DNA of 64,000 nt from contig CAUJEL010000040.1 of assembly GCA_963169875.1 (NCBI GenBank), positions 16,323 to 80,322 on the forward strand, written 5' to 3'. Within the stretch, counting starts at the first letter, position 1. Each line of letters starts with the position of its first letter. The notes under the pieces were generated by a model, which worked only from the letters and a program-made list of their open reading frames with translations, was not told the DNA's origin and searched no databases. Below are positions 10,942 to 36,544 of the stretch, in pieces. Position numbers and translations under genes: made by a program. Origin of the DNA: Candidatus Zhuqueibacterota bacterium. Its GTDB lineage: Bacteria; Zhuqueibacterota; Zhuqueibacteria; Residuimicrobiales; Residuimicrobiaceae.

Positions 10942-12266
10942 GCTCCCGTGGGATTGCTGGTGTTGCAGAGCCGCCCGTCCCGGGCTGCGAGAACACCGCG
11001 AAGGAACACATATTTGATATCAAGGGTGGATGTCAGGTCCGGATAGGTCTCCCAGGCATCGGCCAGGGTTGAAAGTACAGGCTTGGCCGCACCCCGGGGC
11101 TGCAGAACCACCAGGTCGGCGTCCGCGCTCGCCTGGATGGCGCCCTTGCGCGGATAAAGACCGGTCACCCTGGCCGGATTGGTGCAGAGTTGTCGGCTGA
11201 TTTGCACCAGGGTTTTCTCCGTGAGAACATCCTGGTACAACTTGAAAACAAGGTGCGGCAAGGCGCCGATGCCGGCCACGCCGCCGGGGACGCGGCGGAT
11301 GTCGCCGCCCCAATCATCTTTGTCTTTTTTCAGGAAGGCGCAGTGATCCGTGGCGAAGAGATCGATCGCACCGTGCCTCGCCAGTTCACATAACTTCTGC
11401 CGTTGTTCTGCCGTGCGCAGCGGCGGCGCGCAGATCCAGTGGTATCCATCGGGCCGTGCCAGATAACCTGCATCGAGAAAGAGATAGTGCGGGCAGGTCT
11501 CGCAGGTGACGCGCGTATCGGGTGCGGAGCGGATGGCTTCCACGCCTTCAGGTGTCGAAACGTGCACAATGTGAATCTGCGCCCCGGTCTTGCGCGCCAA
11601 ATCGATGAGGCGCAGGATGGCCGTCACTTCCGCGGCAGCGGGACGGAGTCGAACGTGCGACATGGGATCGCGCCAATCGATATTCCCACCCTGGGTTTGC
11701 GTTAGCAATTGATCATCTTCGCAGTGCACCAGCACGGTGCAGCCGAGTTGATGCAGGCGGCTGATCCGTTCCTCCAGTTCATCGTAGGATGAATAGATAC
11801 CCGCATTTTTATAGGTCGTGTAGAACTTGAAAGTACGCATTCCTTGTTCAATGCAGGCTGCAATCTCTTCCCAACCGGGCTTATCAAAGCGCACGGGCGT
11901 CAGGTGCCACAGGTAATCGCAATGGGATTTGCCGGACGCTTTGATTCTCGCGCGTTCAACCGCCGCGGTCAGGGATTCGTCCGGCTCCTGGGTGATGAAC
12001 GAACCCAGGGTGGTGATGCCGTTTTGCAAGGCATGCTGCGAGCCGCTGGACCAGGTGTCGGCCAGATATTTGCCGGCGATGACGTCATCCAGATGGGTGT
12101 GGATATCGATGAATCCGGGGAAGATATAGCAATCCGACGCATCGATGGTTTGATCAACCTGGTGATGAGCGCCCAGAGCGGCAATGCGATCATTTTCAAT
12201 CAAAAGATCGGTGTGGATGATATGATCTTCCAGGACGATGGTGCCGTTGTGGATGCAGGTTTTCAT
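10923..12266 (-). CDS. Cyclic amidohydrolase (dihydropyrimidinase/D-hydantoinase-like, HyuA-like)
   Basis: GFIDIHTHL metal-binding motif, KFY, HCED, and a C-terminal hydantoinase-like fold. This is the position of hyuA in the E. coli-type locus. Confidence 0.8.
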   Translation of the reverse strand: MKTCIHNGTIVLEDHIIHTDLLIENDRIAALGAHHQVDQTIDASDCYIFPGFIDIHTHLDDVIAGKYLADTWSSGSQHALQNGITTLGSFITQEPDESLTAAVERARIKASGKSHCDYLWHLTPVRFDKPGWEEIAACIEQGMRTFKFYTTYKNAGIYSSYDELEERISRLHQLGCTVLVHCEDDQLLTQTQGGNIDWRDPMSHVRLRPAAAEVTAILRLIDLARKTGAQIHIVHVSTPEGVEAIRSAPDTRVTCETCPHYLFLDAGYLARPDGYHWICAPPLRTAEQRQKLCELARHGAIDLFATDHCAFLKKDKDDWGGDIRRVPGGVAGIGALPHLVFKLYQDVLTEKTLVQISRQLCTNPARVTGLYPRKGAIQASADADLVVLQPRGAAKPVLSTLADAWETYPDLTSTLDIKYVFLRGVLAARDGRLCNTSNPTGACLCLT

Positions 12267-19872: not shown

Positions 19873-21120
19873 TCATTTCAATCCGACAACCTCTTCCACC
19901 CGCTCCAGCACCGGTTCCACAGCCTCGGGAATCTTGACCTGCGTCATCGCAGCGCCAACGTCCTTCAAACCATGGCCGGTGATGAGCAGGACGATCTGCT
20001 CCTTTGCATGCAATCGTGCATCTCCGGAAAGTCTCAGCAAAGCCGCGGCAACCGCCGCGGCTGCCGGCTCGGCAAAAATGCCCGTCGTCTCCGCCAGACT
20101 TCGCTGACCCCGCAAAATTTCTTCGTCCGAAACCGTGATCGAAAATCCCCCGGAATCCAGGACCGCCTGCCGCGCCATGGAGGCATTGCTGGGCGCGGAC
20201 ACGGAAATGGAATCCGCAATGGTAGTGGGCTGGTCCGCATTGCGATACACACCGGTCGCGATGAAACGATGGATGGCATCCGAGGTCTCGGCCTGCACCG
20301 CCACCAGCCGCGGCAGTTTTTCGATCAACCCCGATTCTCTCAGGTCATAAAAAGCTTTGTACACGCCGCTGATGATCACCCCATCCCCCACGGGCACGAG
20401 AATGACATCGGGAATTACCCCTGCATTCTGCTGGAAAATCTCGAATCCCACCGTCTTCTTTCCTTCAATGGTCAGGGGATGATAGGCGGTGTTGCGGTTC
20501 ATGCCCCCCCTCTTTTCGCTGTATTGCAATGAAAGACGAAAGGCGTCGTCGTAAGTGCCGTTGACGGGAATGACGCGCGCGCCGTGCAGGATCATCTGCA
20601 CCAGTTTGGCCCGGGGCGCCGACGCCGGCACAAAGATGACTGCATCGAGACCGGCCGCAGCGCATATAGCCGCCAGGGAACTGGCAGCATTGCCGGTTGA
20701 GGCAGCTACAATGGTTTTGGCGCCGATGCGGTTGGCCTCCGCCGCAACCAGAAAAGAGGCCCGATCCTTGAGTGAACCGCTGGGATTGAGGCCGTCGTTT
20801 TTGACAAAAACGTTGGTAAAACCAGCTAGTGCAGCAAATCGATCAATACGCGTGAATGGGGTATTACCCACCGCATAGGGCGGAAAGTATTTCGCCTCCA
20901 CTGCAGACCACAGCGTCCAGTCGATGGCTTTTCCTTGCAGCCGGGCGCGGATGGCGTCATAATCAAACTCAACCCGCAGCACGCCCGGCAGCGGCATGCC
21001 GGGCTTGTAGCCGGTGGCGCAGACCGGGCAGAGATAGGTCACCTCATCGCGCGCATAAGCGCGGCCGCACTGCGTGCAGCGATAGGCGAAGGGAATGCGC
21101 ACCGGATCACGCCTTGCCAT
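19873..21120 (-). CDS. Threonine-synthase-family PLP enzyme with an N-terminal zinc ribbon
   Basis: CTQCG...CPVC ribbon, followed by the NPSGSLKDR lysine motif (threonine synthase NPTGSFKDR). Its start overlaps the ygeY stop by 14 nt. Confidence 0.8.
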   Translation of the reverse strand: MARRDPVRIPFAYRCTQCGRAYARDEVTYLCPVCATGYKPGMPLPGVLRVEFDYDAIRARLQGKAIDWTLWSAVEAKYFPPYAVGNTPFTRIDRFAALAGFTNVFVKNDGLNPSGSLKDRASFLVAAEANRIGAKTIVAASTGNAASSLAAICAAAGLDAVIFVPASAPRAKLVQMILHGARVIPVNGTYDDAFRLSLQYSEKRGGMNRNTAYHPLTIEGKKTVGFEIFQQNAGVIPDVILVPVGDGVIISGVYKAFYDLRESGLIEKLPRLVAVQAETSDAIHRFIATGVYRNADQPTTIADSISVSAPSNASMARQAVLDSGGFSITVSDEEILRGQRSLAETTGIFAEPAAAAVAAALLRLSGDARLHAKEQIVLLITGHGLKDVGAAMTQVKIPEAVEPVLERVEEVVGLK

Positions 21121-22315
21121 TCAGCGTGGCCACCAGGGCGGCGTAAAACACCGCAGCGGCGCTGAGATGTTCGACAGGACACGCCTCGTTGACGGCATGG
21201 GCATAGACCTCATGGCCCGGTCCCAGCCCGAGGCAGGGAATGTTATTCATCCCGGCGATGGCGATGGCGTTGGTGCTGAAGGTCCATTTGTCCACAAGAG
21301 GTTGCTTGTTGAATACGCCCTGGTAAGCGGCAATGGCCTGCTGCAGATAGGGCGATTTTTCATCCAGTACCCAGGTTGGATAGTACTTTTCCGTTGGATA
21401 GATTTTTCCGGTATAGGCCGGCTCTTCATAGGTCAACACCATCACCTTGGCATCTGCTACGCCCGCTTGCCGCGCGGCTTCCTCAACTTCGGCGACGGCG
21501 CTCTCTTTGGTTTCACCCAGCGTCAGGCGCCGGTCGAGATGAATCGAGGCCGCGTCGGGCACGGCGCACAAAGACGGCGATGCGGAGCGCGTCTCGGTCA
21601 CGGTGATGGTGCCCTTGCCGAGGAAGGGGTCGAAGCGCAGCCGTTCATTGAGCTTTTCGATCTCCAGCGCGATGCGCGCCACCTTGTACACGGCATTGTC
21701 GCCGCGCTCCGGCGCCGAGCCATGGCAACTCACGCCCTTGACCTCGACGCGCATCTCCATGCGGCCGCGATGGCCGCGATAAATGTTCATGTTGGTGGGC
21801 TCGGTGATGACCACCAGTTCGGGCCGGATTTTCTCTTCCTTGATCAGGTACTGCCAGCACAAGCCGTCGCAATCCTCTTCCATCACCGTGCCGGTGAAAT
21901 AGATGGTGAACTGGTCATTCAGTCCCAGTTCCTGGATGATTTTTGCCGCATAGACCATGCTGGCCATGCCGCCTTTCTGGTCCACGGTGCCACGGCCCCA
22001 CACCTTGCCATCTTTGATGAAAGGCGTGAACGGATCGAAATCCCACTGGCTGAGATCGCCGGGATAGACGGTATCGATATGCGCGTCGAAAGCGATGACG
22101 CGGGGACCATGGCCGATGCGGCCGACGATGCTGCCCAATCCATCGATGCGAATTTCGTCGAATCCCACTTTTTCCATCTCGCTTTTGATGACCTGGATGA
22201 CGGCTTCTTCCTTGCTCGAGAAAGAGGGCGTGGAGACCAGGTCCATGAGGAATTCCACGATCTCATTTTCGAGTTCCCGGGCGCATTGTGAAATTTGCGA
22301 ATGGTATGAATCCAT
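21107..22315 (-). CDS. ygeY: M20-family hydrolase YgeY (selenium-metabolism-associated peptidase family)
   Basis: M20 metal ligands in HIDTV, GTVDQKGG and EEDCDG. Overall similarity by eye to E. coli YgeY. Confidence 0.85.
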   Translation of the reverse strand: MDSYHSQISQCARELENEIVEFLMDLVSTPSFSSKEEAVIQVIKSEMEKVGFDEIRIDGLGSIVGRIGHGPRVIAFDAHIDTVYPGDLSQWDFDPFTPFIKDGKVWGRGTVDQKGGMASMVYAAKIIQELGLNDQFTIYFTGTVMEEDCDGLCWQYLIKEEKIRPELVVITEPTNMNIYRGHRGRMEMRVEVKGVSCHGSAPERGDNAVYKVARIALEIEKLNERLRFDPFLGKGTITVTETRSASPSLCAVPDAASIHLDRRLTLGETKESAVAEVEEAARQAGVADAKVMVLTYEEPAYTGKIYPTEKYYPTWVLDEKSPYLQQAIAAYQGVFNKQPLVDKWTFSTNAIAIAGMNNIPCLGLGPGHEVYAHAVNEACPVEHLSAAAVFYAALVATLNGKA

Positions 22316-22702
22316 TTGTATACTTCTCCTGTTCTGGTATTCACCTGATGCGGTGTTAACGATGGACGTAATCGTAGTTCAGTGCACCCATAGGGCGCGG
22401 GCATGCAATTACTGTGGCCCAGTTTACAAAGAATCCGATCATTCGTTGCTCATCGCCTAAATATAGCCCAAATAGTATTTTTTTTCAAGTCCTTTATGAT
22501 GCATTTTTGATCTTTGGGTCAATGACAACACCTCGCCGCTCCGTCGTCCAGCTTACCTGTATGAAAAACCTGTTCGTATGGAAATAATGCATTCCCTTTT
22601 TGGGCCGCCCATTCCGGATACATTTTTTCCAGATTTGCCTTGACTCATATCTCCTGATTGGCTATTTTTCATAAGGGTTATCACGTAAAATGGAGAAATG
22701 GA

Positions 22703-25594
22703 ATGGGGAAAAAAATTCTGCTAACAGGAGATGTAGTCGTCGATCATCATATTTATACTGGTGAGCGCACCAAAGCTTCAATGACGGGCCAACGGGGCGT
22801 CAAGACCGTGCGGGAGCTCGGCGGCGCCAATAATGCAGTAAAGCTGATCAATGAGATGATCAACCAGGCGGTTGAACACAATTCCCAAGAGATGAAAGAA
22901 TTGCAGGCGAATCGGGATCGATGTCTGAAAGCCAGAGACGAAGCCAAAAAAGATTATGAAAAAATGATCAAAGCAGGCAAACCGGAGACCTGCATCGCCA
23001 AAAAGGCAAAGGTCCTCGAGATCGCCGAAGAAAATCTCGACACTGCTGCAAAAAAGCTGCAAAAAAACACATCAGCGATTGAAGAGGGCTGGTCCGTAGA
23101 GTATGCGCTGGAACAGCCGAATTTGCACGAAAAACCCTGCGGGCATCATGCCTTTGCCGTGTGGAAACCGTGCGCCCTATGTCCTGAAAAGAAAGATACA
23201 AAAGATAAAGTCTGGAGAGCGGCCCCCCTGTTGGGCTATGGCCACGAAACAGCCTTGAATCCTTGCGACATTCCGGAGGCTCAACCTTTTGTCCCCACCC
23301 CTAAACCCAAGGGGAAGGAACAGGATATCCTGGTGATCGATGACGCCGGCACAAGTTTCCGCACAGAAAAACACAAGGCCTGCTGGATGCTGCCATCACC
23401 CCAAAACAGCAAACCCGAATGGATTCTCCTGAAAATGTCCTCGCCAGTCTGCCGCGGCGATCTCTATAATGAATTAATCAAAAATTATAGTAAGAGATTG
23501 ATTGTCCTGGTCTCAGCCAAAGAGCTTCGGTTGGAACACGTGAATATCAGCAATGGGCTCTCATGGGAATTGACGGTCGAAACCCTGCGCGACTCGCTGC
23601 ACCGCAATCCGCTTCTCAAGGAACTTGCTGAATGGTGCAAACACCTGATCATCATCTTTTCCGGTGATGGCGCCCTGTGGCTGGACCGCACCAAAGTCGG
23701 CAAACCGAGGGCGACCCTGGTCTATTCGCCGGGGAGTATCGAGGGGATGTCAACGGAGGACTGCGAAGGTGAATCCCTGGGATACATGGCCTGCATTATC
23801 GCCGCGCTGACGCGCGAGATTATCGCCATGCAGCAACGTATCGGCGAAAAAGAAAAGGAACAATCACCGCATTTTGATCAAGCCCTCAAGGCTGGACTCG
23901 GCGCCATGCGCGATCTGCGCTATAATGGCCACGGCATTGTTGGTCAGCCGGACTCCGCTGCCGGATTCCCGGCTGCACGGTTGGCCAAGGAACTCCTAGC
24001 AGGCACGAAGGTATTTAAAGAGGCCTTTGTTCCCTGGAGCGACGCGGAGATTCGCCAAGCCGGCAGCTGGTCCATCCTGGAACAATCCCAACGTCCGGTC
24101 GATCAGGACATCCGGCCCTCCCTGATCGGGCTCGCCAAATTGGCGACCGTGATGGGTACGGTGGCCCTGGAAAAATATCCGTTTGCGCGATTTGGCAATT
24201 TGTTCACCGTTGACCGCAAAGAGATAGAATGCCTGCGCGCCATGCGCAAACTCATGCGTGAATACAAAAATGGCGACCAGAAAAAACCGCTTTCCATCGG
24301 CGTATTCGGTCCGCCGGGTGCGGGAAAATCCTTCGGCGTCCGGCAAATTGCCAATGAAATATTTGGCAAGGAATCCTGGATTGAATTCAATCTGTCCCAA
24401 TTCAATGATGTGGAGGATCTGACCGGCGCCTTTCATCAGGTTCGTGATGTGGTCCTCGGCGGCATCACGCCTGTCGTGCTCTGGGACGAGTTCGATTCGC
24501 AGCAGTATAAATGGCTGCAGTATCTGCTGGCCCCCATGCAGGACGGCAAATTCCAGGAAGAACAACTCACCCACCGCATCGGCCGCTGCGTTTTCGTTTT
24601 TGCCGGCGCCACCAGTTTCAGTTTTAAAACGTTCGGCCCCAAACCGGCGCAAGAGGGTTGGACTAATTTTAAGCTGGCCAAAGGCCCTGACTTTCACAGC
24701 CGGCTGGATATCTATTATAATGTGCTCGGTCCCAATCCACGACTGCTCTCCGAAGCTCCTGATTCAGACAAGGCAGATCCCATGGATAAATGCTATCCCC
24801 TGCGGCGAGCCATCCTCCTGCGCAGTTTTCTCATGAAAGATCCTAATAAAATGCTGGATATTGACAACGGCCTGGTCTCCGCCCTGATTGAAATTCCGTG
24901 GTACCGGCACGGCGCGCGTTCTCTGGAAAAAATTGCGGATTACCTGAAACCCAGGCAGAAGGGAGATTCCGTACGTTGCTCTGCGCTGCCAGCGCCCACC
25001 ACCTTGGCCATGCACCTCGCCGCTGAAATCAACAGGGCGCTGCAGGACGAGACGGATGAAAACCAGGGCGTGGCAAAATTCTACGAGCTCGCAAACCAGG
25101 ACATGAAATTCAAAATTCCGGCTGTTACCGAAAAACTGGCGCCCGCCATTCATGAAACCTGGCGCGAACTGGGCAGGAAAGAAGGCTGGCTGAAGAAGCA
25201 GAATGACGTTGATTACAAAAAACTTTCGGAATTTCTTAAAAACTCCAACAAGGCCGCCGCGCAGCGCATGTCAGATATCCTGAGTTATGTGGGTTTGCGT
25301 CTGCAGCCGGGCGCCGCCACGCCGGCGGAGAGAGAACTGGTGCAAAAGTATCTGGAGCATCACGTGGAATTGCTGGCCGAACTGGAGCACATCGGCTGGA
25401 AGAATTGGCATGAGGCGCAGGGCTGGAAGTACGCTGCTGTACGCAATGACGCCAACCAGGAACATGATTGTCTGAAGGACTTTGATGAACTGACCGAAAA
25501 GGATAAAGGCAAAGACCGGGAACAAGTTCTGCACTTTCCGGATTTTGCGGAAAAAGGCGGATTAAAAATTGTCTTCGCCGTAGCGGCGAAATAA
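22703..25594 (+). CDS. Multidomain protein: N-terminal PfkB/ribokinase-like domain (tentative), central P-loop AAA+ ATPase, two C-terminal RyR-like domains
   Basis: GGAGA RBS 6 nt upstream of the ATG at 22703 (MGKKILLTGDVVVDHHIY...GGANNAVKL, PfkB-like N-terminus). Walker A GVFGPPGAGKS at 24301-24340; Walker B VVLWDEFD at 24472-24495. RyR-like repeats at about 25140-25270 and 25380-25530 (NWHEAQGWKYAAVRND...DELTEKDKGKDRE). Confidence 0.8.
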   Translation: MGKKILLTGDVVVDHHIYTGERTKASMTGQRGVKTVRELGGANNAVKLINEMINQAVEHNSQEMKELQANRDRCLKARDEAKKDYEKMIKAGKPETCIAKKAKVLEIAEENLDTAAKKLQKNTSAIEEGWSVEYALEQPNLHEKPCGHHAFAVWKPCALCPEKKDTKDKVWRAAPLLGYGHETALNPCDIPEAQPFVPTPKPKGKEQDILVIDDAGTSFRTEKHKACWMLPSPQNSKPEWILLKMSSPVCRGDLYNELIKNYSKRLIVLVSAKELRLEHVNISNGLSWELTVETLRDSLHRNPLLKELAEWCKHLIIIFSGDGALWLDRTKVGKPRATLVYSPGSIEGMSTEDCEGESLGYMACIIAALTREIIAMQQRIGEKEKEQSPHFDQALKAGLGAMRDLRYNGHGIVGQPDSAAGFPAARLAKELLAGTKVFKEAFVPWSDAEIRQAGSWSILEQSQRPVDQDIRPSLIGLAKLATVMGTVALEKYPFARFGNLFTVDRKEIECLRAMRKLMREYKNGDQKKPLSIGVFGPPGAGKSFGVRQIANEIFGKESWIEFNLSQFNDVEDLTGAFHQVRDVVLGGITPVVLWDEFDSQQYKWLQYLLAPMQDGKFQEEQLTHRIGRCVFVFAGATSFSFKTFGPKPAQEGWTNFKLAKGPDFHSRLDIYYNVLGPNPRLLSEAPDSDKADPMDKCYPLRRAILLRSFLMKDPNKMLDIDNGLVSALIEIPWYRHGARSLEKIADYLKPRQKGDSVRCSALPAPTTLAMHLAAEINRALQDETDENQGVAKFYELANQDMKFKIPAVTEKLAPAIHETWRELGRKEGWLKKQNDVDYKKLSEFLKNSNKAAAQRMSDILSYVGLRLQPGAATPAERELVQKYLEHHVELLAELEHIGWKNWHEAQGWKYAAVRNDANQEHDCLKDFDELTEKDKGKDREQVLHFPDFAEKGGLKIVFAVAAK

Positions 25595-25655
25595 CCCCAT
25601 CAAAACGTGCTGCATGTACGATGAGGGCGATCCGCTGAACGGGTCGCCCTTTTTT

Positions 25656-26981
25656 CTACAGCCTCTCCCACAACGCCGCCACCCGTTCTCTCGCCCGGAG
25701 ATAAACCTCTCTCTCATCCAGATCCAGCAACAGTTTTTTATCCCGCATCAGCACCCTGCCCGCCACGATGGTCGTATCCACCGTTGCCTGCGACACCCCG
25801 AATACGATCTGCCCCATCCAGTTTTCTTGATGGAGCGGCGTCGCGGGATCATAATCGACGAATATGAGATCCGCCGCAGCGTCCACCGCGATCTCTCCGA
25901 GGGGGGCAGCAAATATCCGCCGGGCAATTTTTGCGTTATGGAGCAGCAGCGCAGAGACCGCTGCATCAAATCCAACGGAGGGATTGTTATGCAGAAAATG
26001 CTGACACCAGATCGCCGCGCGCACCTCTTCGCTCATGCGTGTGGTCATGGCGTCGGTGCCCAGGCCGACCAGGATTCCGTGTTTCTGCATGGCAACAATA
26101 TCGGCGATGCCCACGGCGTTGTTCAAATTCGACTGTGGATTGTGCACCACGGCCGCGCCGGACTGCGCCAGCAGCGCCATCTCTTTTTCGTCGACCTGCA
26201 CCGCATGCGCGGCGATGGAACCGGGCACGAGTATACCCTGCTCGTATAAGCGCTCCACCACGCCTTTTCCATATTGCGCCCGGGTGTATTCCTGATCAGC
26301 GATGGATTCCGCCACATGGATGTGAAATCCCGTGCCAAGGCCGCTTCCCAGCCTGGCCGCCGCTTTCAATGTGACATCGGTTAGCGTGAAAGAGGCATGC
26401 AAGCCGAAAAGAGCCTTTATGAATGGATCGTTCCGTTCTTTACAGGCCAGGATAAAGTCGCGGTTCTCTTCCAGTCCCTCCTGCGTCGCCCGGGCGCCGT
26501 CGCGGTCGGAGACTTCATAGCAGAGACAGCCGCGCAAGCCGGTTTCGCGAAAAGCCCGGGCAATGGCGTCGAGCGACCCGCGGATGGCGCAGGGACTGGC
26601 GTGATGATCGATCAACGTGGTGGTGCCGTGACGGATCGCCTCCAGCAGCACCACCAGGGCGCTGTAATAGCAATCCTCCAGACTCAAGGCTTTATCCAGG
26701 CGCCACCACAAATTCTTCAAGACCGGGAGAAAAGATGAGGCCGGCTCGGTTTTGGTCAATCCCCGCGCAAAGGTGCTGTAGCAGTGCATGTGGGCATTGA
26801 TAAAGCCGGGCAATACGATTTTACCGGAAGCGTCCAGTTTCTGATCGGCTTTCCGGTTCACAGAGGCGGCAATTTCCCGGATAAGGCCGTCTTCAATATA
26901 GATATCCTGATCGTTCAAGACGCGGCAAGATGCGCCCAGCGTGATGAGCGTCGCATGGGTGATGAGCAAAGAATCGGACAT
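25656..26981 (-). CDS. ssnA: Amidohydrolase SsnA (chlorohydrolase/deaminase family)
   Basis: PGFINAHMHCYST and HVAES metal-binding motifs. Length matches SsnA (441 aa). It lies directly downstream of the ygfK-like gene, as in E. coli. Confidence 0.85.
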   Translation of the reverse strand: MSDSLLITHATLITLGASCRVLNDQDIYIEDGLIREIAASVNRKADQKLDASGKIVLPGFINAHMHCYSTFARGLTKTEPASSFLPVLKNLWWRLDKALSLEDCYYSALVVLLEAIRHGTTTLIDHHASPCAIRGSLDAIARAFRETGLRGCLCYEVSDRDGARATQEGLEENRDFILACKERNDPFIKALFGLHASFTLTDVTLKAAARLGSGLGTGFHIHVAESIADQEYTRAQYGKGVVERLYEQGILVPGSIAAHAVQVDEKEMALLAQSGAAVVHNPQSNLNNAVGIADIVAMQKHGILVGLGTDAMTTRMSEEVRAAIWCQHFLHNNPSVGFDAAVSALLLHNAKIARRIFAAPLGEIAVDAAADLIFVDYDPATPLHQENWMGQIVFGVSQATVDTTIVAGRVLMRDKKLLLDLDEREVYLRARERVAALWERL

Positions 26982-26990
26982 AAATCTCCA

Positions 26991-29477
26991 TCAACCTTCA
27001 TGAAGCGCGGCGTGCTCCGCGGCTGTGCGCTCCCGCATATAAATCGCGCCGCTGAAACACTTTTGCGCGCACAGCGAGCAGCCGACGCAGCGGGCCGCGT
27101 CAAAATGCGGCATCCGTTTCTCGTCCAGCGCAATGGCCTGATAGGGACAGCGCGTGCAGTTGCCGCAGTGCTCACACAGGGCGGCCTCCACGGCGGGAAG
27201 CATCTTACGCGAGGTCAGCGTCTCGAACGGCGTCACCGGATTGGGCAGCGCCGAGCCGATCAGCTCACGCACCGAGCGCAAACCGCGCGCCTGCATCAGG
27301 AAACTGAGACCGCTATGGAGATCATCGACGATGCCATAGCCGTATTTCATGACGATGGTGCAGAATTGTACGGTCTCCGCGCCCAGGGCGAGAAAATTCG
27401 CCGCGGCTTTGTAATGCATGGGGCCGCCATTCCCCGAAACCGCGATCCCCATGCCCGCCACTTTGGCCAGGGTGAGATTGCTGATGGGCAGCACACCATC
27501 GCCGGACATGCCGACAACAACTCCTTCTTCCCAAATACTCCCCGCATTTTTTCGAAAAGCCATCGCTGGAAAACTGTTGGCCAAGGTGACACCGGCCCGC
27601 TTCTCAGGATGGCGCCGCAAAACTTCCTGGATGCTCTCGATGATCGGCCGGATGGCAGTTACCGCTGCAGTGAGCTTGAACAATTTGGGCACCGCGCCGT
27701 CGCCGCTCTGCAGCACCCACTCGATGATCTTTGCGGTCAATTCGGCGACCTGCGACACCACATCGCCTCTGGTGCCGTCGCCCCCCTGGGGGCAGGAGAG
27801 GCTGTACTCGATCCCCATGGTGCCGGCCGCTTCCAGTTTGCGCGTATTGGATTGCCAGACTTTGCGGTCCGCTTCGTCGTGGCCGGTCACGGGTCCGCCG
27901 GTGGAGGCCATGGTGAGCCGGTCCGGGAACTCGCTGACGAGCCGTTCCACCTCGCGGCAGACGCGATCGAGTGGGTGGCCGGAGACGTTGTCGCAGTTGC
28001 CATAGGTGGTGGGCGCCAGCACAAACATATAGGATCCGGGGATGTGGATGGGGACATTGTCAAAGGCGGTCTTCATCACGGCGCCGGCCCAGCCTTTTTC
28101 ATAGGCCATCTTCATCTGGGCGTAGCCGTCCGTGTGCGGTGCGGCTGAAATCAGAAAGGGAGAATTAATCTTGCGGCCAAAAAATTCAGTCTCCAGGGGC
28201 ACCGGCCGCAGATTTCTGCCCGCCAGAATGGCGTATCCCTTGGCGCGGTTTATAATCCTGGGCTTTTTTTCTCCGCGGATGAATGCATCGGCTTCCAGGG
28301 CGGCGTTTTTGCCCGAAGCAACCGACTCCACCACGGTCGATGATCCCAGGACGAGATCGCCGGCGTAGAAGACGCCTTTTGTTTTTTGCACCGGAATGCC
28401 GGCGCGGCTGCCGATGGCAGCAATGACAAGGTCAAAACTACGGAACTGCGGGCGTTCGCCGGGGATGGGGATGAAATTTTGCGGCGACGGCGGCAGGCCG
28501 GGCGGGAGCATCATTTTTTCCAGCCGCAGGCCAATGACCCGGCCCTGGCGCACAACAACCTGCAAAACCCGGGAACAGGTCGAAACTTCGATGCCATGGC
28601 GCAGCAGCAAATCTCTTTCATATCCGGTTACCGGCATGTTTGCAAATTTACGGCGGTAAATCAATTCGACATGACCTGCACCGCGACGTCTGGCGCTAAC
28701 TGCACAATCGACGGCCACGGCGCCGCCGCCGATCACGGCAACGCGCTGGCCTTTGAGATCGGTCTGTTTGCTGTTTTCAAGAAAAGAGTGCCACGGCAGC
28801 GCCGCTCCATCGCCTCTGACGCCCAATCCAATAGGGTGATCAAGACCGCTGCAGACCACCACCGCATCGTAGGCGCCTGTTGTCAGAAGCGAGAGCGGAT
28901 CAGCAACCGGTTTATGCACCATGGTGATGTTACCGAGGGAGAGAAAAAAACGGAAATCCGAGTCCAGCACTTTTTTATCGAGGCGGAAATCGGGGATTAG
29001 GCGGGCGGCACCTCCGCCCTTGCGGTTCTGTTCATACACTTCAACCTTGTAGCCTTTTTGCGCCAGCACCGCCGCGGCGCCGATGCCCGCGGGGCCGGCG
29101 CCGATGACCGCCACGCGTTTGCCATTGGAGGCCATGGGATCAAAAGCGGGAAGACCAAATTCTTTGGCTTTGCGGATGATGGTCGCTTGTACCGAGGGAA
29201 TGTTCACAGGAGTGGTAAATTTGGCATGGACACAGGCGGCCATGCAGAAAGAGTCGGGGCAGACCAGTCCGCAGACACCGCCAAGCGGGTTGGCGGCCAT
29301 GATGAGCGCTGCGGCGCGCTGGAGATCTGATTTCTCGCCGACGCGCGCCGCCATGATGAAATCCGCCGGCGAGCAGTGCGCCGGACACGCTTCACGGCAC
29401 GGCTTTTCTTCGCAGTATTCGCATTTTTCCAACTCGGCCTTGAGTTGGGCGTCGGTCAGGAATCCCTCTTTTTTCAC
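26991..29477 (-). CDS. ygfK: YgfK-like / dihydropyrimidine-dehydrogenase-like oxidoreductase (FAD/NAD(P) domains, DHOD-like TIM barrel, 4Fe-4S clusters)
   Basis: N-terminal Cys cluster, VAVIGAGPAGIGAA and VAVIGGGAVAVDCA dinucleotide folds. C-terminal ferredoxin motif CEHCGNCTRCPYQA...CVGCSLCAQKC. Confidence 0.8.
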   Translation of the reverse strand: MKKEGFLTDAQLKAELEKCEYCEEKPCREACPAHCSPADFIMAARVGEKSDLQRAAALIMAANPLGGVCGLVCPDSFCMAACVHAKFTTPVNIPSVQATIIRKAKEFGLPAFDPMASNGKRVAVIGAGPAGIGAAAVLAQKGYKVEVYEQNRKGGGAARLIPDFRLDKKVLDSDFRFFLSLGNITMVHKPVADPLSLLTTGAYDAVVVCSGLDHPIGLGVRGDGAALPWHSFLENSKQTDLKGQRVAVIGGGAVAVDCAVSARRRGAGHVELIYRRKFANMPVTGYERDLLLRHGIEVSTCSRVLQVVVRQGRVIGLRLEKMMLPPGLPPSPQNFIPIPGERPQFRSFDLVIAAIGSRAGIPVQKTKGVFYAGDLVLGSSTVVESVASGKNAALEADAFIRGEKKPRIINRAKGYAILAGRNLRPVPLETEFFGRKINSPFLISAAPHTDGYAQMKMAYEKGWAGAVMKTAFDNVPIHIPGSYMFVLAPTTYGNCDNVSGHPLDRVCREVERLVSEFPDRLTMASTGGPVTGHDEADRKVWQSNTRKLEAAGTMGIEYSLSCPQGGDGTRGDVVSQVAELTAKIIEWVLQSGDGAVPKLFKLTAAVTAIRPIIESIQEVLRRHPEKRAGVTLANSFPAMAFRKNAGSIWEEGVVVGMSGDGVLPISNLTLAKVAGMGIAVSGNGGPMHYKAAANFLALGAETVQFCTIVMKYGYGIVDDLHSGLSFLMQARGLRSVRELIGSALPNPVTPFETLTSRKMLPAVEAALCEHCGNCTRCPYQAIALDEKRMPHFDAARCVGCSLCAQKCFSGAIYMRERTAAEHAALHEG

Positions 29478-29795
29478 GTTTTACGTCCCGTCTTGACACT
29501 GGTAAATAGGAGCGTGTTTGCATGAATATAGCGGTTTAATATATGGAGATCAAGTTTTTTATATGCTTCGTTGTACGGATACGCCCACCCCGATTCGGTG
29601 CCTGCACGCCAGTTCGGCAACCTCCGGGGTGGCACAACACCAGTTTAATTGTCCCATTAACATCGAATCGGGCACTCATGCAATTTCATGCATTTGCATA
29701 ATTTAGCTTGACTTGATTGCCTTTTATCTTTATAATACAGTACTTGCTTATACGAATCAGCAGCCGCTGTCTTGCCTGATATTTCTTCCATGTAG

Positions 29796-31289
<1,494 letters not shown>

Positions 31290-31626
31290 AAAACGGGGCT
31301 GCCTGCTAGGTGCCTAAAAATGGTCTGAAAGGCCGCAAGCTATCTGCCCACGCCGCACGGACTTGCCGAAAATAGCTTCAAAAGATGAATCTGTTTGATT
31401 ATTGCTGGTTTTTATAAAGGAATTAAAAGCAACATCACAAACAAGCCAAAGCTTGTACTCAAACATATTCAATAAATTAGGAGTGCTTGTTTAAGTTCAG
31501 CCTTTGAGCTGGACCATGTGATCTCACTCTTTTATATTCACAAATGCCATCATATTTGAGGATATTCCCATTCAGAGCTTGTTTAAACGGGTATCAATCT
31601 CTCTGATCATCTGATCCTTTCATTAG

Positions 31627-32559
31627 TCAACCTCCATTTCGAACCTGAATGATTTCCGCTGCAATGCTGACCGCGATCTCTGCCGGTGTGTGGCTATGAA
31701 TAGGCAGGCCAATGGGCGTCCGGACATTTTGCAGAACCTGTTTGCTGATACCCTCGCTGAGCAGATTGGTGAGAATCTGCTGTGCTTTTACCCGGCTCGC
31801 CATCAGGCCGAGATAGCGAAATGAATGCGGGATCAACCACCGTAAGACCACTTCGTCCGCCCGATGTGATGGCGTCATGATGACGACATAGCTGTGGTCG
31901 CCCGGCGGAACGAAAGAGGCAACCTTTTCCATGGGCGTGATGATGATATCATGGGCAAAAGGGTTCTTCTTCAGGGCATCCAGTTCCGGCCGGTCGTCGA
32001 GAATGACGATGCGCACATCCAGCGTGGATAAAATCAGCGACAAGGCGGAAGCGACATGGCCGCCGCCGATGAGGTAAACCGTATCTTCATATCCCAATCT
32101 TTCTTCATAAAGACTTGAAGGATCTTCTTCGATCTCCGCCGTCCATTGTATCTCTTGTCCCGCGATCCTCATCAAGCTGGGCTGATTACCAGTAATGCCC
32201 TTTTTGATCTGCTGCACCGCAGCGAGATGGCGGCTGCTGCACGGAAAGGTGAGCACCGTCTGGCTGCCGCCGCAGATCATGCCCGATGTTTCCGCAGACG
32301 CACCGCCATCATGAAGCATGCATTGGATGTTCTGTCTGACCCCGCCACTTTGTAGCTGTTGTTTGATGGATTCTGCCAGATCATACTCGACTGCACCGCC
32401 GCCAATGGAACCGCAGAGCCGGCCATCCTGGGCAACCGCCATTTTAAAGCCTGTTTTGCCGGGCGTGGAGCCTTCATGCGCGATGACCAGCAGCAGCACC
32501 ACGGGTCTGTGGTTCAGTAATTCTTCCTCGATGAATGACCAAAAGCCCACCTGATTCAT
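31627..32559 (-). CDS. xdhC: XdhC/CoxI-family molybdenum hydroxylase maturation factor
   Basis: N-terminal XdhC/CoxI domain (VVLLLVIAHEGSTPGKTGFKMAV) plus a Rossmann-like domain (VYLIGGGHVASAL). Located downstream of xdhA and xdhB. Confidence 0.8.
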   Translation of the reverse strand: MNQVGFWSFIEEELLNHRPVVLLLVIAHEGSTPGKTGFKMAVAQDGRLCGSIGGGAVEYDLAESIKQQLQSGGVRQNIQCMLHDGGASAETSGMICGGSQTVLTFPCSSRHLAAVQQIKKGITGNQPSLMRIAGQEIQWTAEIEEDPSSLYEERLGYEDTVYLIGGGHVASALSLILSTLDVRIVILDDRPELDALKKNPFAHDIIITPMEKVASFVPPGDHSYVVIMTPSHRADEVVLRWLIPHSFRYLGLMASRVKAQQILTNLLSEGISKQVLQNVRTPIGLPIHSHTPAEIAVSIAAEIIQVRNGG

Positions 32560-32612
32560 TATGGAAAAACCTCCCGATCAAAATTACCTGATGGCGGGCG
32601 GCCCCCCACCCT

Positions 32613-32701
32613 GCCGTCACCCCGGGAACGCCGGGCGCAAATTCGGCAACGGCGCTTCCAGGCTGCCGCCATCCTGCAGTCACCCCGGGAACGCCGGGTG
32701 C
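32613..32701. repeat. Two direct copies of a 23-nt hairpin-forming motif GTCACCCCGGGAACGCCGGG(C/T)GC in the xdhB-xdhC intergenic region
   Basis: 32613-32638 and 32679-32701. Each contains a CCCGG-GAACG-CCGGG stem-loop. Confidence 0.3.
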
Positions 32702-32724
32702 CAGATGGCGAACTGACGCCCGCC

Positions 32725-35004
32725 CTACCCGTGCAACGCCAGCAACACGCGTTCCGGCGTCAGCGGTGCGGTGTATTCCACCTGCCAATCCGGCCGGAAC
32801 ACTTTGATGGCATTGATCAGGGCAAAATAACCGGCAATGCCGTACATGAACGGTGGCTCGCCGATGGCCTTGCTGTGAAACGGTCCCGGCGGATTGAAAG
32901 AATCCGGCAAAAAATGCACATCGATCACCTTCGGCGCAAAAAAGATATCCGGCACCTTGTAGGTCGTCAGGCTGTCGGCCAGGAGACGGCCGGTTTTATC
33001 ATGAATAGTTTCTTCCAGCGTCAGCCATCCCAATCCCTGCACCACGGCGCCTTCCACCTGCCCCTGATCGATTAACGGGTCCAGCGACTGCCCCACATCG
33101 TGCACCAGGCGCACGGCATCGAAGCGGTATGTCCCGCGCACCACATCCACTGTCGCTTCCACCATGGCGGCGCCATAGACATGATAGGCAAAGGCATCGC
33201 CCTTGTTTTTGTCGCGATCGAAAAAGATATGCGGAGTGGCATAATGGGCATGGGCGGACAAATTGATGCGGCTGCAATAGGCCTCCCGAATCAGCGTCGG
33301 CCAATCCCAGTCAATCCTTTTTCCATCAATCAACACCTGTTCATCGAGAATGGCAACCTGATCCGGCTGATCCAGGCCGCGTAAAACCGCCAGAAAAGAC
33401 TTCAGTCGTAACAAAATGCTCTCACAGGCAAGTCGGGTGGCATTGCCGTTGAGATCGGGTCCGGTGCTGGCAGCTGTGGCCGAGGTATTGGCATTGCGCG
33501 TGGTATTGGTGCTCTCCATGCGGATGCGACCCACCGAAATGCCGAGAACGCGGGCGGCGATGCCTCTGATCTTCTCATGGGTGCCCTGCCCCATTTCCAC
33601 CACGCCGGTGCTCACGCCCACACTGCCATCGGAGTAGACATGCACCAGCGCGTTGGCCTGATTGAGCAGGGTATTGGTGAAAGAGATGCCGAAACAGATT
33701 GGCATGACGGCAATCCCTTTTTTCTCGAAGGGATGAGCTGCATTGAATCGAGCCGCATCCGCGCGCAGTTTTTCCGTTTCGCAGCGTTCCTCCAGAATTT
33801 GCCAGCATTTGCGGATGTGCGGATTGACGGCCTTCTGACCATAGGGAAATTCATCCCCCTCGCGCAGCAGATTGGCGTGCTGGATGACCGAAGCGTCAAC
33901 GCCCAGTGCTTGCGCCGCCCGATGGATGGCGGATTCGATGACGAACATGGCCTGGGGTCCACCAAATCCGCGAAAGGCGGTGTTGGGTGCACAGTTGGTG
34001 CGGCAGCTGTAGCCCGTGGCGCGGACATTGGGGATGTGATAACAGTTGCTGGTGTGAAACAGCGTCCGGTCCAGGATGGCGGGAGAAAGATCGGCCGCGG
34101 CGCCGGCATTTTGATAGAAGGAGACCTCATACGCGAGAATTTTGCCGACGGCATTCAATCCTATCTTATAATCCGAAGAATAGGGATGGCGTTTGCCGGT
34201 ATAGCGCATATCTTCATGGCGGCGCAGCACCAGTTTGACGGGCTTTTTCATCTTGAAAGCAGCCAGGGCTGCCAAAGCCGCCCAACAGCTGGCCTGATCT
34301 TCCTTGCCGCCGAACGCACCCCCGAGCCGCAGGACTTCCACCTCGATGTGATGCATGGGCAGATTCAGCACGCGCGCCACCGTTTTTTGCACACTGGTCG
34401 GAGATTGTGTGGCCGAGAAGAGCTTGATGCCGCCGTCTTCCCGCGGCAGGGCGATGGCACCCTGGGTTTCGAGATAGAGGTGTTCCTGACCGCCGGAATC
34501 GGCGCGGCCGCTGATGATATACTCGCACTGCGCCCAGGCGGCATCCACATCGCCGCAGGCGAAGACCCGAGGCGGCTGGATGAGTTGATTGTGCGCATAG
34601 GCTTCACGCGGATCGAGGATGGGCTTTTTTTCCTTGATCTCCGCCGTGACCAGCCGGACAGCCCGCCGCGCCGCATCTGCGGTTTTCGCAACCACGAGGG
34701 CGATGGGCTGACCTGCGAAATCCACGCCCTTTTCAGCCAGGAGCACTTCGTCGCGAATGATGCCGCCGATCTGGTTTTCGCCGGGAATGTCCGCCGCCGT
34801 CAGAATGCCCGCCACATCAGGCGTGTGTGCAGCTGCTTCGATATCGAGGTTTTTCAAGACGCCATGGGCGACGGGTGAAGCGAACACCGCCGCGTGCAAA
34901 CAACCGGATGGCAGGGTGTGATCATCGATGTAAATCGATTCGCCGCGAACATGCAGGGTTGCGTCATGATATTTCATAAAAAATCCTGCGTTAGCAAATG
35001 ACAA
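32725..35004 (-). CDS. xdhB: Xanthine dehydrogenase molybdopterin-binding subunit
   Basis: 759-aa ORF with typical XDH Mo-subunit features, including GGAFGGKE, the QGxxQ-type loop (METQGAIA...) and GEPP near the C-terminus. Confidence 0.85.
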   Translation of the reverse strand: MSFANAGFFMKYHDATLHVRGESIYIDDHTLPSGCLHAAVFASPVAHGVLKNLDIEAAAHTPDVAGILTAADIPGENQIGGIIRDEVLLAEKGVDFAGQPIALVVAKTADAARRAVRLVTAEIKEKKPILDPREAYAHNQLIQPPRVFACGDVDAAWAQCEYIISGRADSGGQEHLYLETQGAIALPREDGGIKLFSATQSPTSVQKTVARVLNLPMHHIEVEVLRLGGAFGGKEDQASCWAALAALAAFKMKKPVKLVLRRHEDMRYTGKRHPYSSDYKIGLNAVGKILAYEVSFYQNAGAAADLSPAILDRTLFHTSNCYHIPNVRATGYSCRTNCAPNTAFRGFGGPQAMFVIESAIHRAAQALGVDASVIQHANLLREGDEFPYGQKAVNPHIRKCWQILEERCETEKLRADAARFNAAHPFEKKGIAVMPICFGISFTNTLLNQANALVHVYSDGSVGVSTGVVEMGQGTHEKIRGIAARVLGISVGRIRMESTNTTRNANTSATAASTGPDLNGNATRLACESILLRLKSFLAVLRGLDQPDQVAILDEQVLIDGKRIDWDWPTLIREAYCSRINLSAHAHYATPHIFFDRDKNKGDAFAYHVYGAAMVEATVDVVRGTYRFDAVRLVHDVGQSLDPLIDQGQVEGAVVQGLGWLTLEETIHDKTGRLLADSLTTYKVPDIFFAPKVIDVHFLPDSFNPPGPFHSKAIGEPPFMYGIAGYFALINAIKVFRPDWQVEYTAPLTPERVLLALHG

Positions 35005-35143
35005 ACTTACTATTCCAAGCCATTTAATCTGTTCAATTCATGCCCGGATTCTATGCCAACTCAACCTGCGTATGCAAATGTATTCACCACAAGGAGTAAT
35101 TGGAATGAGCTCAAAGCGACCTCTGACACCGCGGATGAATCAA

Positions 35144-36544
35144 TCATGGATACAGAAACCGATGCAGCTGCGCCCGAATTAATTGGCCCAGCAACAGCTT
35201 TTTATATCGCGCTGACCCGCGGACGTCACTGATGGGTGATATCTCCGTGAGCGCGCACGCCACCGTCCGGGCGACGGTTTCCTCGTTGATTTTGCAGTTG
35301 CGCAACAGGAGCGAAGTTTTGCTCAAATAAAGTGGTATGGGTGCCACCCCTCCCGCTGAAACATGCGCCGTTATAACCATGCCTCCCTGAATATCCAACA
35401 ACATGGCTGAATTCACCGAAGCGATATCCAGATAGGTTCTTTTGCTGACCTTTTCAAAAGAAAAACGGGCGGATGCCGGAGGTATCGCAAAAGAGAGCGC
35501 GGTCACCAGTTCCTCATCATGACGCTGCATGGTTTTGTAGCCGGTGAAAAAATGGCGCAGCGGCAGGGAGCGCTGTTGTTTTTCATCAAAGGATCGCAGG
35601 TGGATGTGGGCATCCAGGGCGAGCAGCATGATGGTCAGATCCCCGATCGGCGAGGCATTGATGATATTTCCGGCAACGGTGGCACGATTGCGGATTTGCG
35701 TGGATGAGACCAGCTCCAGGCTGGCTGCGAGTTGCGGCAGAACTTCATGAAGGATGCCCGAGCGGCGCAGGGTTTCCACGGTGACAGCAGCGCCGATGCT
35801 GCAAATACCCTCGTGAACCTGGATCCTTTTCAAATCGGGGCGATCTGCCAGCAGCCCCACATGGCGATTCTGCAGGTCTTCACCGCGCTGCACATAGATA
35901 TCCGTGCCGCCGGCGACCAACGCCTGCGTATCCATCGTTTGCATTTGCGGCGACAGGCCCATTTTTTTCAGCTCCGCAGCCACCGTGGCGAAATATTCAG
36001 GCAAAAAGCCGGATGCAATCAATGCGGTTATGCGCTGCGGCGTGGACGGATCGCTGGAGAAAAGGCCGGGGGGAACGATGTCGAGCACTCTCTCAATGGC
36101 GCGGCGGATACCCGAGTATCCGGTGCAGCGGCAGATATTGCCGGCCACGCTCATGACGGCCTCGCCCACATCCGCGGAAGTTGCGTTGATCAGGTACGCG
36201 GTCATGGACATGACCAGACCCGGTGTGCAGAAGCCGCACTGAACCGCCCCTGCCTCGATCAACGCACGCTGCAGTGGGCTCGGATCGGCCGTGTTCAGGC
36301 CTTCGATGGTGACCACCTGTTTCCCGGTGCAATCGCCCACCGGCATGAGGCAGGAGTCGACTGCGTCATAGACGATGCGATCGTTCTCCATCCGGCCTAT
36401 CAGAACGGTACAGGCGCCGCAATCTCCCTCGCGGCATCCTTCCTTGGTGCCTTTCAAATCGAGCGTATCGCGAAGCACATCCAGCAGAACACGTCCGGTT
36501 GGCAGCTGCAACTCCAGGACTTGCTGATTGATCATGACCTGCAT
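35144..36544 (-). CDS. xdhA: Xanthine dehydrogenase small subunit (fused 2Fe-2S and FAD-binding domains)
   Basis: N-terminal CREGDCGACTV / CGFCTPG / CRCTGY ferredoxin motifs, followed by the FAD-binding (CO dehydrogenase flavoprotein-like) domain AGGTDIYV. Confidence 0.85.
   Translation of the reverse strand: MQVMINQQVLELQLPTGRVLLDVLRDTLDLKGTKEGCREGDCGACTVLIGRMENDRIVYDAVDSCLMPVGDCTGKQVVTIEGLNTADPSPLQRALIEAGAVQCGFCTPGLVMSMTAYLINATSADVGEAVMSVAGNICRCTGYSGIRRAIERVLDIVPPGLFSSDPSTPQRITALIASGFLPEYFATVAAELKKMGLSPQMQTMDTQALVAGGTDIYVQRGEDLQNRHVGLLADRPDLKRIQVHEGICSIGAAVTVETLRRSGILHEVLPQLAASLELVSSTQIRNRATVAGNIINASPIGDLTIMLLALDAHIHLRSFDEKQQRSLPLRHFFTGYKTMQRHDEELVTALSFAIPPASARFSFEKVSKRTYLDIASVNSAMLLDIQGGMVITAHVSAGGVAPIPLYLSKTSLLLRNCKINEETVARTVACALTEISPISDVRGSARYKKLLLGQLIRAQLHRFLYP

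Follow-up and report, generated by a model that had tools for sequence, protein, structure and literature searches.

What is a large ATPase with ryanodine-receptor-type repeats doing among the purine-catabolism genes of a bacterium? The question is raised by a 64-kb stretch of DNA from Candidatus Zhuqueibacterota bacterium (GenBank assembly GCA_963169875.1, contig CAUJEL010000040.1, positions 16,323 to 80,322; hereafter the window), in which the + strand reads through a complete open reading frame (ORF) for a protein of 963 aa. An initial annotation, made from the sequence alone, had divided this protein into a PfkB-like beginning, an AAA+ core and two RyR repeats, had suggested a part in nucleotide-dependent signalling or conflict, and had recognised no named system. 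All three modules are confirmed here by the Pfam RyR model, by motifs and by a fold search. The suggested role now has strong support from conserved neighbours in other genomes, including linkage and fusions to TIR, DUF4062-STAND and probable SLOG-SLATT proteins, and from the match of the RyR pocket to experimentally defined binders of cyclic ADP-ribose (cADPR). With moderate confidence, we propose that the protein may be a host, rather than phage, signal reader or effector in immunity of the TIR/DUF4062 type, which works through nucleotides derived from nicotinamide adenine dinucleotide (NAD).

The nucleotide pocket of the RyR module

Assignment of the C-terminal module to the RyR (R12) family is supported at the level of both sequence and structure. 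Pfam RyR (PF02026) scored 51.9 bits against a cut-off of 27.4, in two stretches of which the better lies at aa 881-942, and RyR repeats in the PDB were matched by sequence with E values down to 2e-13. An AlphaFold model of the whole protein, built on 23 homologs, reached a mean predicted local distance difference test score (pLDDT) of 82.7 and a predicted template modelling score (pTM) of 0.83. When the PDB was searched with this model using Foldseek, a check that the initial annotation had recommended, three classes of match were returned: PfkB-family kinases, AAA+ proteins (Clp, Hsp104 and p97) and ryanodine receptor Repeat1-2. The last class comprised the R12 crystal structures 6uhi, 9ls7 and 6uhh (TM-score on target 0.5-0.62, over 165-196 columns), and the modelled module has the two-repeat, pseudo-symmetric helical fold.

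R12 proteins of phages are known to bind or cleave the cADPR signals of TIR immunity (PMC13232231; bioRxiv 10.64898/2026.06.04.730250). Sequestration of 3'cADPR by RyR Tad (gp68 of phage vB_PatP_CB1) depends on H129/W132, K147/H154 and K170/D171, residues that were validated by mutation (bioRxiv 10.64898/2026.06.04.730250). RyDEP (DyoEdafos gp78) cleaves 2'/3'cADPR by means of an H75/D117 dyad, with W78 stacking on the adenine and H100 contacting the phosphates, and most phage homologs with the same residues are sponges, not hydrolases (PMC13232231). We fetched the gp68 sequence by accession and aligned it directly to the RyR repeats: H129, W132, K147, H154, K170 and D171 fall on H896, W899, R914, H921, K937 and D938 of repeat 2, and the spacings in repeat 2 equal those of H75/W78/H100/D117 in RyDEP. 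Across 122 diverse representatives of the family, the sample used for all conservation values below, the pocket residues of repeat 2 are 89-100% conserved. Repeat 1 is degenerate, keeping H817, W/Y820, N849 and R855 and lacking the second His and the Lys-Asp pair, so only one repeat of the pair has the full pocket. Thus, repeat 2 is predicted to hold an intact adenine-ribose nucleotide pocket of the cADPR/ADP-ribose (ADPR) binding type.

The family and the two phage proteins have in common the R12 fold and a full ligand set (His-x2-Trp, Lys/Arg, His, Lys-Asp). They differ in architecture: the phage proteins are small, consist of a single homodimerising R12 unit and act as sponges or glycosidases against the host, whereas the family carries a tandem R12 pair at the C-terminus of a cellular multidomain ATPase. 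A tblastn search of phages with the RyR repeat gave weak matches only, and DyoEdafos was not among the matches listed. The tandem arrangement is that of Repeat1-2 in animal ryanodine receptors. In crystal structures of the RyR3 R12 domain with AMP-PCP and ADP, Trp880 stacks on the adenine and Arg895 contacts the phosphate (PMC12627627); by alignment offsets, these correspond to W899 and R914. The animal protein is an ion channel, whereas the bacterial family is a soluble ATPase whose full pocket is confined to one of the two repeats.

Gene neighbourhoods and fusions of relatives

Neighbouring ORFs were called in all homolog loci and then clustered, and counts are given for the 34 loci with at least 3 kb of sequence on both sides. 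A TIR or DUF4062 gene lies within 6 kb of the family gene in 21 of the 34 loci (62%), and at least one of TIR, DUF4062, a probable SLOG(-SLATT) protein or a further RyR gene is present in 25 (74%). The initial annotation had proposed to inspect domain order and conserved neighbours in other genomes in order to decide between a defence or signalling island and a housekeeping role; these 25 loci point to partners of the signalling/defence type. Partners make up 20.9% of ORFs within 1 kb, falling to 4.9% at 6-10.5 kb, and 43 of the 48 within 3 kb are co-directional with the family gene. Pfam confirmed the DUF4062, TIR and NB-ARC/NACHT-TPR/WD40 partners, and ten of ten sampled matches to our home-made TIR profile proved to be Pfam TIR_2. 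The linkage extends to gene fusions, in which the family core is followed by a C-terminal TIR_2 (P0035), preceded by an N-terminal TIR_2 (P0179) or joined to NACHT-TPR (P0153). In short, relatives of the gene share operons with, and are sometimes fused to, genes for TIR/DUF4062 NADase sensors and probable SLOG(-SLATT) proteins. No system-level model in PADLOC v2 covers these partner cassettes, and the partner genes match its TIR-domain-level models only.

DUF4062 has been shown by experiment to act as a TIR-like NADase in anti-phage defence, converting NAD+ to ADPR and nicotinamide (bioRxiv 10.64898/2026.05.01.722283). Defence proteins with this domain (Swarozyc, Evangelion, DUF4062-STAND) are partners, not homologs, of the family and are its commonest large neighbours; their product, ADPR, is a plausible RyR ligand, and none is encoded in the window. 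Another recurrent partner, found immediately downstream of the family gene, is a module of about 185 aa with the motifs GVTGHR, LAEGADR and WDG..GGT. This module is probably a SLOG domain, since its weak matches converge on the SLOG superfamily: DprA (five members), YpsA, cpYpsA, YAcAr, SLOG cluster 4 and the YpsA structure 2nx2.

Several loci contain further RyR proteins. At L029:13545-15986, a TIR_2-NACHT-RyR fusion of 813 aa unites a presumed signal writer and a reader domain on one STAND protein. Stand-alone RyR proteins of 93-96 aa adjoin DUF4062-STAND genes at L002:9635-9916 and L029:1356-1646; in alignment they retain the H/W/H/D core together with most of the six ligand residues of RyR Tad and RyDEP, and a role as host-encoded sponges or hydrolases buffering the signal is conceivable. 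A recurrent cassette upstream of the family gene encodes TrkA_N-RyR, RelA/SpoT-LSDAT-RyR and NUDIX proteins (L001:5154-9947, L008:2-4763, L040:3244-8100 and L017:3695-6610), with NUDIX, RelA/SpoT and RyR parts fused in one protein at L017. Several different outputs therefore appear to share the same RyR reader.

Two other neighbours were seen more than once. A conserved TrkA_N-domain protein of about 260 aa (L023:12931-13713, L026:11800-12576 and L042:12934-13716) is encoded between a stand-alone SLOG-like gene and either a DUF4062-STAND gene (L023, L042) or a TIR_2 gene (L026). Complete cassettes thus include a type with the family gene, SLOG, TrkA_N and DUF4062-STAND (L023/L042), besides one with the family gene, SLOG-SLATT and TIR (L034/L043). 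Operons of the ubiquitin-like conjugation type, with ThiF E1, Prok-JAB, Pup-ligase-like, AAA and Prok-RING components, lie divergently upstream of two family members (L006:2026-9217 and L002:3594-5241), which fits a defence-island setting.

The AAA+ and ribokinase-fold modules

The central module has the complete set of catalytic motifs of a Clp/Hsp100-type ATPase. In addition to Walker A (GPPGAGKS, aa 536-543) and Walker B (VVLWDEFD, aa 591-598), it has sensor-1 T637, R667 in a PDFxSRLD stretch that aligns to the Clp PEFxNRID, and the tripeptide GAR at 737-739, which we take to be sensor-2. These motif residues are 96-100% conserved, with K542, D595 and E596 at 99-100%. The nearest relatives of the module are the second nucleotide-binding domains (NBD2) of ClpB and ClpC; sensor-1, the Arg finger and sensor-2 occupy NBD2-equivalent positions in an NBD2-like fold, and Walker A/B, 'LLxxxxDG', sensor-1, PDFxSRLD and GAR can all be aligned to ClpB, ClpC and CLPB. 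With Pfam AAA (PF00004), the window protein scored 20.5 bits, below the gathering threshold of 21.2, which some relatives pass (23.1-30.8 bits). Unlike Clp/Hsp100 proteins, however, the family has a single AAA+ ring, with no NBD1, no Clp_N and no GYVG segment. The stretch from 'SQF' to 'QVRD', 17 aa long in 108 of the 122 representatives, contains no aromatic-hydrophobic-Gly motif, and the matching stretch of full-length ClpC is longer, at about 27 aa. Because the aromatic pore loop is absent, the AAA+ ring is more likely to act as a nucleotide-driven switch or scaffold than as a threading unfoldase.

The PfkB assignment of the N-terminal module, offered tentatively and by eye in the initial annotation, is borne out by the fold search, and the model has a ribokinase-like alpha/beta fold with a beta-sheet lid. 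At the sequence level, Pfam PfkB (PF00294) gave no match to the protein at E<=1, and hhalign of an N-domain profile against E. coli ribokinase RbsK, a query 100% identical in sequence to PDB 1GQT, gave no signal in either global or local mode. The residues kept in the domain are G9/D14, G40-G41, D213-D214, K244, R276, S287-W288-E289 and E347. By order of secondary structure, the invariant G9..D14 and G40-G41 stand at the places of ribokinase G11..D16 (with the substrate Asp) and G41-G42 (the GG switch), the hairpin 'FSxDGALW' (aa 319-326) parallels the TLGxxG-like 'TLGSRGVW', and S271-x-x-[DE]274 occupies the expected NXXE place. In place of the GAGD Asp there is Glu347, 96% conserved, with Gly348 and then an insertion; no Asp stands ahead of the long helix, where position 361 may be Y, F, L or A. 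According to the model, then, the N-terminal module is a predicted ribokinase fold with a conserved polar pocket.

Within this domain is inserted a long helical hairpin, and the whole is fused to the AAA+ module, which likewise sets the family apart from ribokinases. The hairpin is a variable accessory element: the G41-G135 segment spans 95 aa in the window protein against a family median of 33 (range 18-133). The coiled coil had previously been described as a linker between modules, yet it is an insertion inside the PfkB-like domain. Nor do the supposed Cys/His-rich linkers amount to a conserved metal motif, as their cysteines vary across homologs.

Family size and distribution

A word-indexed search had returned 23 proteins and suggested a near-orphan family, a view overturned by an exhaustive search of 1.84 billion representatives with a hidden Markov model, which retrieved 2,451 cluster representatives at E<=1e-30; the best 150 of these are near-full-length matches above 670 bits. 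The label 'orphan' thus suits the local context of the gene and not its family. A scan of species-representative genomes found 48 loci, patchily distributed over more than 10 phyla, in Planctomycetota, Acidobacteriota, Verrucomicrobiota, Chloroflexota, Bacteroidota, Actinomycetota, Clostridia, Cloacimonadota, Ignavibacteriota and Proteobacteria. Cultured carriers include Humibacillus xanthopallidus DSM 21776, Clostridium magnum DSM 2767 and C. polyendosporum JCM 30710. Three plasmids also carry the gene, one copy adjoining a gene for a 2,082-aa SIR2 protein and insertion sequence (IS) elements. The family gene was not found in 50,697 phage genomes or in 2.9 million viral contigs (IMG/VR).

Members are named in their sources 'RyR domain-containing protein', 'Ryanodine receptor Ryr', 'AAA family ATPase' or 'hypothetical'. 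Neither NCBIfam nor PADLOC has a model with a significant match to the 963-aa protein, in keeping with the earlier failure to recognise a named system. That annotation would have been undone by an unrelated N-terminal fold in a common, characterised family; what we find is a PfkB fold in a family that is common and uncharacterised.

A proposed mechanism and its alternatives

If the 963-aa protein is indeed a reader or effector of immune signals, it could work as follows. A TIR or DUF4062 partner, activated by infection, would produce ADPR or an isomer of cADPR. This nucleotide would bind RyR repeat 2, and binding would switch the assembly or the ATPase cycle of the AAA+ ring. The ring, in turn, would control the ribokinase-fold heads, which may bind or phosphorylate a ribose-bearing small molecule. 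Because the window copy is solo, its signal would have to come from genes elsewhere in the genome or from bulk ADPR.

A number of observations weigh against this proposal. The window copy sits alone among purine-catabolism genes, and tblastn with the partner proteins detected no partner gene, intact or decayed, in the 64 kb; the only match was to the RyR module of the gene itself. A similar solitude is seen in 9 of the 34 loci (about 26%), which have no partner class, and the genes at all loci were called with a crude greedy ORF picker. The matches behind the SLOG assignment are all sub-threshold. R12 domains also bind plain ATP/ADP (PMC12627627), which leaves room for a ligand other than an immune signal. 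In the N-terminal domain, the PfkB residue equivalences depend on secondary-structure order only, the canonical catalytic Asp of GAGD is not recognisable, and the window protein carries Ser at position 342 instead of the Asp found in 92% of representatives, although all its other conserved motif residues are present.

What else could the protein be? Immune chemistry would also be involved if it were a host enzyme that terminates the signal or salvages its products, with the RyR module hydrolysing cADPR isomers to ADPR in the manner of RyDEP and the ribokinase-fold domain phosphorylating ADPR or ribose, so as to limit autoimmunity or to restore NAD after TIR/DUF4062 activation instead of carrying out the defence itself. 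H896 and D938, 100% and 96% conserved, exactly match the RyDEP dyad; NUDIX genes or domains, assumed to hydrolyse ADPR, occur in the L001, L008 and L017 cassettes; and both the small RyR proteins beside DUF4062-STAND genes and the setting of the window copy among genes for nucleotide-base catabolism would suit such a task. Yet most phage homologs with the same residues are sponges, so that catalysis cannot be read from these residues, a simple hydrolase-kinase would have no need of a strongly conserved AAA+ motor, and the canonical PfkB catalytic motif is missing, which leaves this explanation unlikely in our judgement. We regard as still less probable a Clp-like remodelling ATPase with no immune role, regulated by energy status or adenine nucleotides, in which R12 would sense ATP/ADP, as has been suggested for animal RyR, and the ribokinase-like domain a metabolite. 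The ligands seen in the RyR3 crystals, the kinship with ClpB and ClpC NBD2, and the quarter or so of loci, the window included, that have no immune-type neighbour are all compatible with it; against them stand the strong, distance-dependent and co-directional linkage to TIR, DUF4062, SLOG and STAND genes together with the fusions, a patchy distribution of the kind left by horizontal transfer, and the absence of the pore loop required for substrate threading.

Two further explanations concern the window copy itself. It might be the stranded remnant of a lost cassette, no longer of use, as its lack of partners and Ser342 could indicate and as might be expected from its closest relatives, which sit in cassettes: P0002 (59% identity) is preceded by TrkA_N-RyR, RelA/SpoT-LSDAT-RyR and NUDIX genes, and P0003 (53%) by a SLOG-SLATT gene, whose SLATT end was tested, and rejected, as a NUDIX gene. 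On the other hand, the 963-codon ORF is intact with its other motif residues, and the gene comes with a Shine-Dalgarno sequence, a promoter-like site and a terminator of its own. The same solo arrangement is found in two other assemblies, where the allele differs by 9 substitutions (5 synonymous, 4 non-synonymous); the ratio of non-synonymous to synonymous rates (dN/dS) is 0.23, compared to 0.32-0.60 for flanking genes, a comparison of low statistical power, as 9 substitutions are too few to establish purifying selection on the solo copy. Decay seems an improbable explanation. Least probable of all, to the point that we give it hardly any credence, is a sugar or nucleoside kinase working within the surrounding purine/N-heterocycle catabolic array. 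The ribokinase fold and the place between an M20 peptidase and an ssnA-like amidohydrolase would agree with such a kinase, but the gene runs on the other strand, has a promoter region and a terminator of its own and bears no PfkB sequence signature. Neighbour clustering of the other approximately 50 homolog loci gave no group shared with the catabolic genes of the window, and the only loci with this context carry the same allele, in the same or a closely related organism.

Relation to Thoeris and wider implications

The signal reader or effector that we propose would resemble Thoeris in several ways. ThsB-like TIR_2 proteins are encoded beside relatives of the family gene, a signal-binding domain is fused to an output module (in ThsA, the reader is SLOG or Macro), and probable SLOG and SLATT modules occur in operons of the relatives; signalling by an NAD-derived nucleotide of ADPR type would be the expected chemistry. 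The differences are equally clear. The reader of the family is RyR/R12 instead of SLOG or Macro, its output module is a ribokinase fold with AAA+ instead of SIR2 or a transmembrane-only effector, and many of its partners are DUF4062- or TIR-STAND giants, not the small ThsB. No ThsA model matches the 963-aa protein, and there is no TIR gene in the window.

In the full-text literature, RyR is mentioned with Thoeris or TIR only in the RyDEP and RyR Tad phage preprints, in a 2021 paper on NAD signalling in axon degeneration and in a general review of pattern-recognition receptors, and a search for host-encoded RyR effectors or for an immune protein with a ribokinase fold and AAA+ found nothing. 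The 2026 preprints on phage R12 and on DUF4062 describe no host-encoded R12 proteins. What is new here is a large cellular ATPase that carries an R12 pocket with the ligand residues of the phage proteins and is linked or sometimes fused to TIR, DUF4062-STAND and probable SLOG-SLATT proteins. Should the mechanism outlined above hold, nucleotide-signalling immunity would gain a reader domain and an output architecture that are both new to it, the latter pairing a ribokinase fold with a pore-less Clp-type AAA+, and the origin of the phage sponges would be explained.

More speculatively, and with distinctly less confidence than in the role of the single protein, RyR/R12 may serve as receptor domain in a widespread but so far undescribed form of NADase-based immunity in bacteria. 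As a whole, in this scheme an ADPR-type signal would be written by sensors of the TIR or DUF4062 kind, of which many are STAND NTPases; R12 would read it on at least three outputs, namely PfkB-fold-AAA+ proteins, TrkA_N membrane proteins and (NUDIX-)RelA/SpoT-LSDAT pyrophosphokinases; and host-encoded stand-alone R12 and NUDIX proteins would buffer it. RyDEP and RyR Tad would in that case be host receptors captured by phages, and animal ryanodine receptors would have inherited their R12 domain from a sensor of ADPR or cADPR.

The gene and its surroundings in the window

Features of the gene and of its relatives' loci are collected in Table 1. The ORF is flanked by an M20 peptidase gene (21107-22315, - strand) and an ssnA-like amidohydrolase gene (25656-26981, - strand), and, as annotated initially, it is the sole + strand gene between these two (ygeY and ssnA). 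A start at TTG 22658 is unlikely: homologs begin at an MxKxILVTGD motif, and GGAG precedes the ATG. The gene does have an upstream region of its own, as claimed, although the length of about 340 bp given for it holds for the TTG (342 bp), the gap to the ATG being 387 bp. The promoter-like site is a consensus match only, to a consensus that may not be the promoter type of this organism. The terminator hairpin lies between the gene and the convergent amidohydrolase gene. With a promoter-like site upstream and a strong hairpin and T-run after the stop, the gene is predicted to be its own transcription unit.

Table 1. Coordinates of the 963-aa gene and its modules (window positions), and partner classes in homolog loci
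Feature	Position	Strand	Basis or remarks
Promoter-like site TTGACT-17-TATTTT	22640..22668	+	Consensus scan, 9/12 matches
Shine-Dalgarno GGAG	22692..22695	+	Read from sequence, 7 nt before ATG
Complete gene, PfkB-like + AAA+ + double-RyR protein, 963 aa (ATG 22703 to stop 25594)	22703..25594	+	ORF list, full-length homologs, AlphaFold model
Ribokinase/PfkB-fold domain (predicted), aa 1 to about 470	22703..24112	+	
Long helical hairpin (coiled coil), aa 42-121, variable accessory element	22826..23065	+	Helices 42-91 and 95-121 in model
Clp/Hsp100 NBD2-type AAA+ module, aa about 500-780	24200..25042	+	
RyR repeat 1, aa about 805-870	25115..25312	+	Pfam stretches, column profiles, alignment to gp68
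RyR repeat 2, aa about 880-958, full pocket H896, W899, R914, H921, K937, D938	25340..25576	+	
Intrinsic-terminator hairpin and T-run	25623..25660 (hairpin 25623-25651)	+	12-pair stem, 8 G-C pairs, then TTTTTT
Module of ~185 aa, 0-60 bp downstream of family gene, alone or fused to DUF4231/SLATT domains (two transmembrane segments)	L002, L023, L034, L043		
DUF4062-, TIR_2- or NB-ARC/NACHT-TPR/WD40 STAND giants	L002, L004, L010, L029, L040		
ThsB-like TIR_2 proteins fused to WD40, PQQ-propeller, Laminin_G or FGE-sulfatase sensor domains	L017, L021, L025, L034		
Further RyR partners: TrkA_N-RyR, RelA/SpoT-LSDAT-RyR, NUDIX-RelA/SpoT-RyR, TIR-NACHT-RyR, stand-alone RyR (93-96 aa)			

The initial annotation had also called the gene 'inserted' into the catabolic array. 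GC content and GC content at third codon positions (GC3) are within the range of the window (z = -0.7 and -0.8), and no flanking direct or inverted repeats of note were seen around the gene, so the word is best read as a statement of position only.

The surrounding purine/N-heterocycle catabolic island occupies 8659-12266, 19873-22315 and 25656-36544. It encodes two molybdenum (Mo) hydroxylase large subunits, a subunit with flavin adenine dinucleotide (FAD) and 2Fe-2S, XdhC, two amidohydrolases, a pyridoxal phosphate (PLP) enzyme (with a second just outside, at 5171-6625), an M20 peptidase and a ygfK-like Fe-S flavoprotein. At 29802-31289 (+ strand), a 495-aa protein has a ubiquitin domain of eukaryotic type (Pfam PF00240, E 1.9e-31, aa 36-105), followed by an SdrD_B domain and a C-terminal sorting domain (Por_Secre_tail) of the type IX secretion system (T9SS). 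Going by these domains, it would be a secreted bacterial ubiquitin-like protein; the gene is also present in the related Logan assembly L060. Further downstream, a GatD-like protein (GatD_N + asparaginase; 39402-40823, - strand) and a GatE-like protein of 633 aa (GatB_N + GatB_Yqey; 43979-45883, - strand) form an amidotransferase pair of the archaeal GatDE type, in a window that otherwise has bacterial T9SS and FlgD_ig secretion-type domains.

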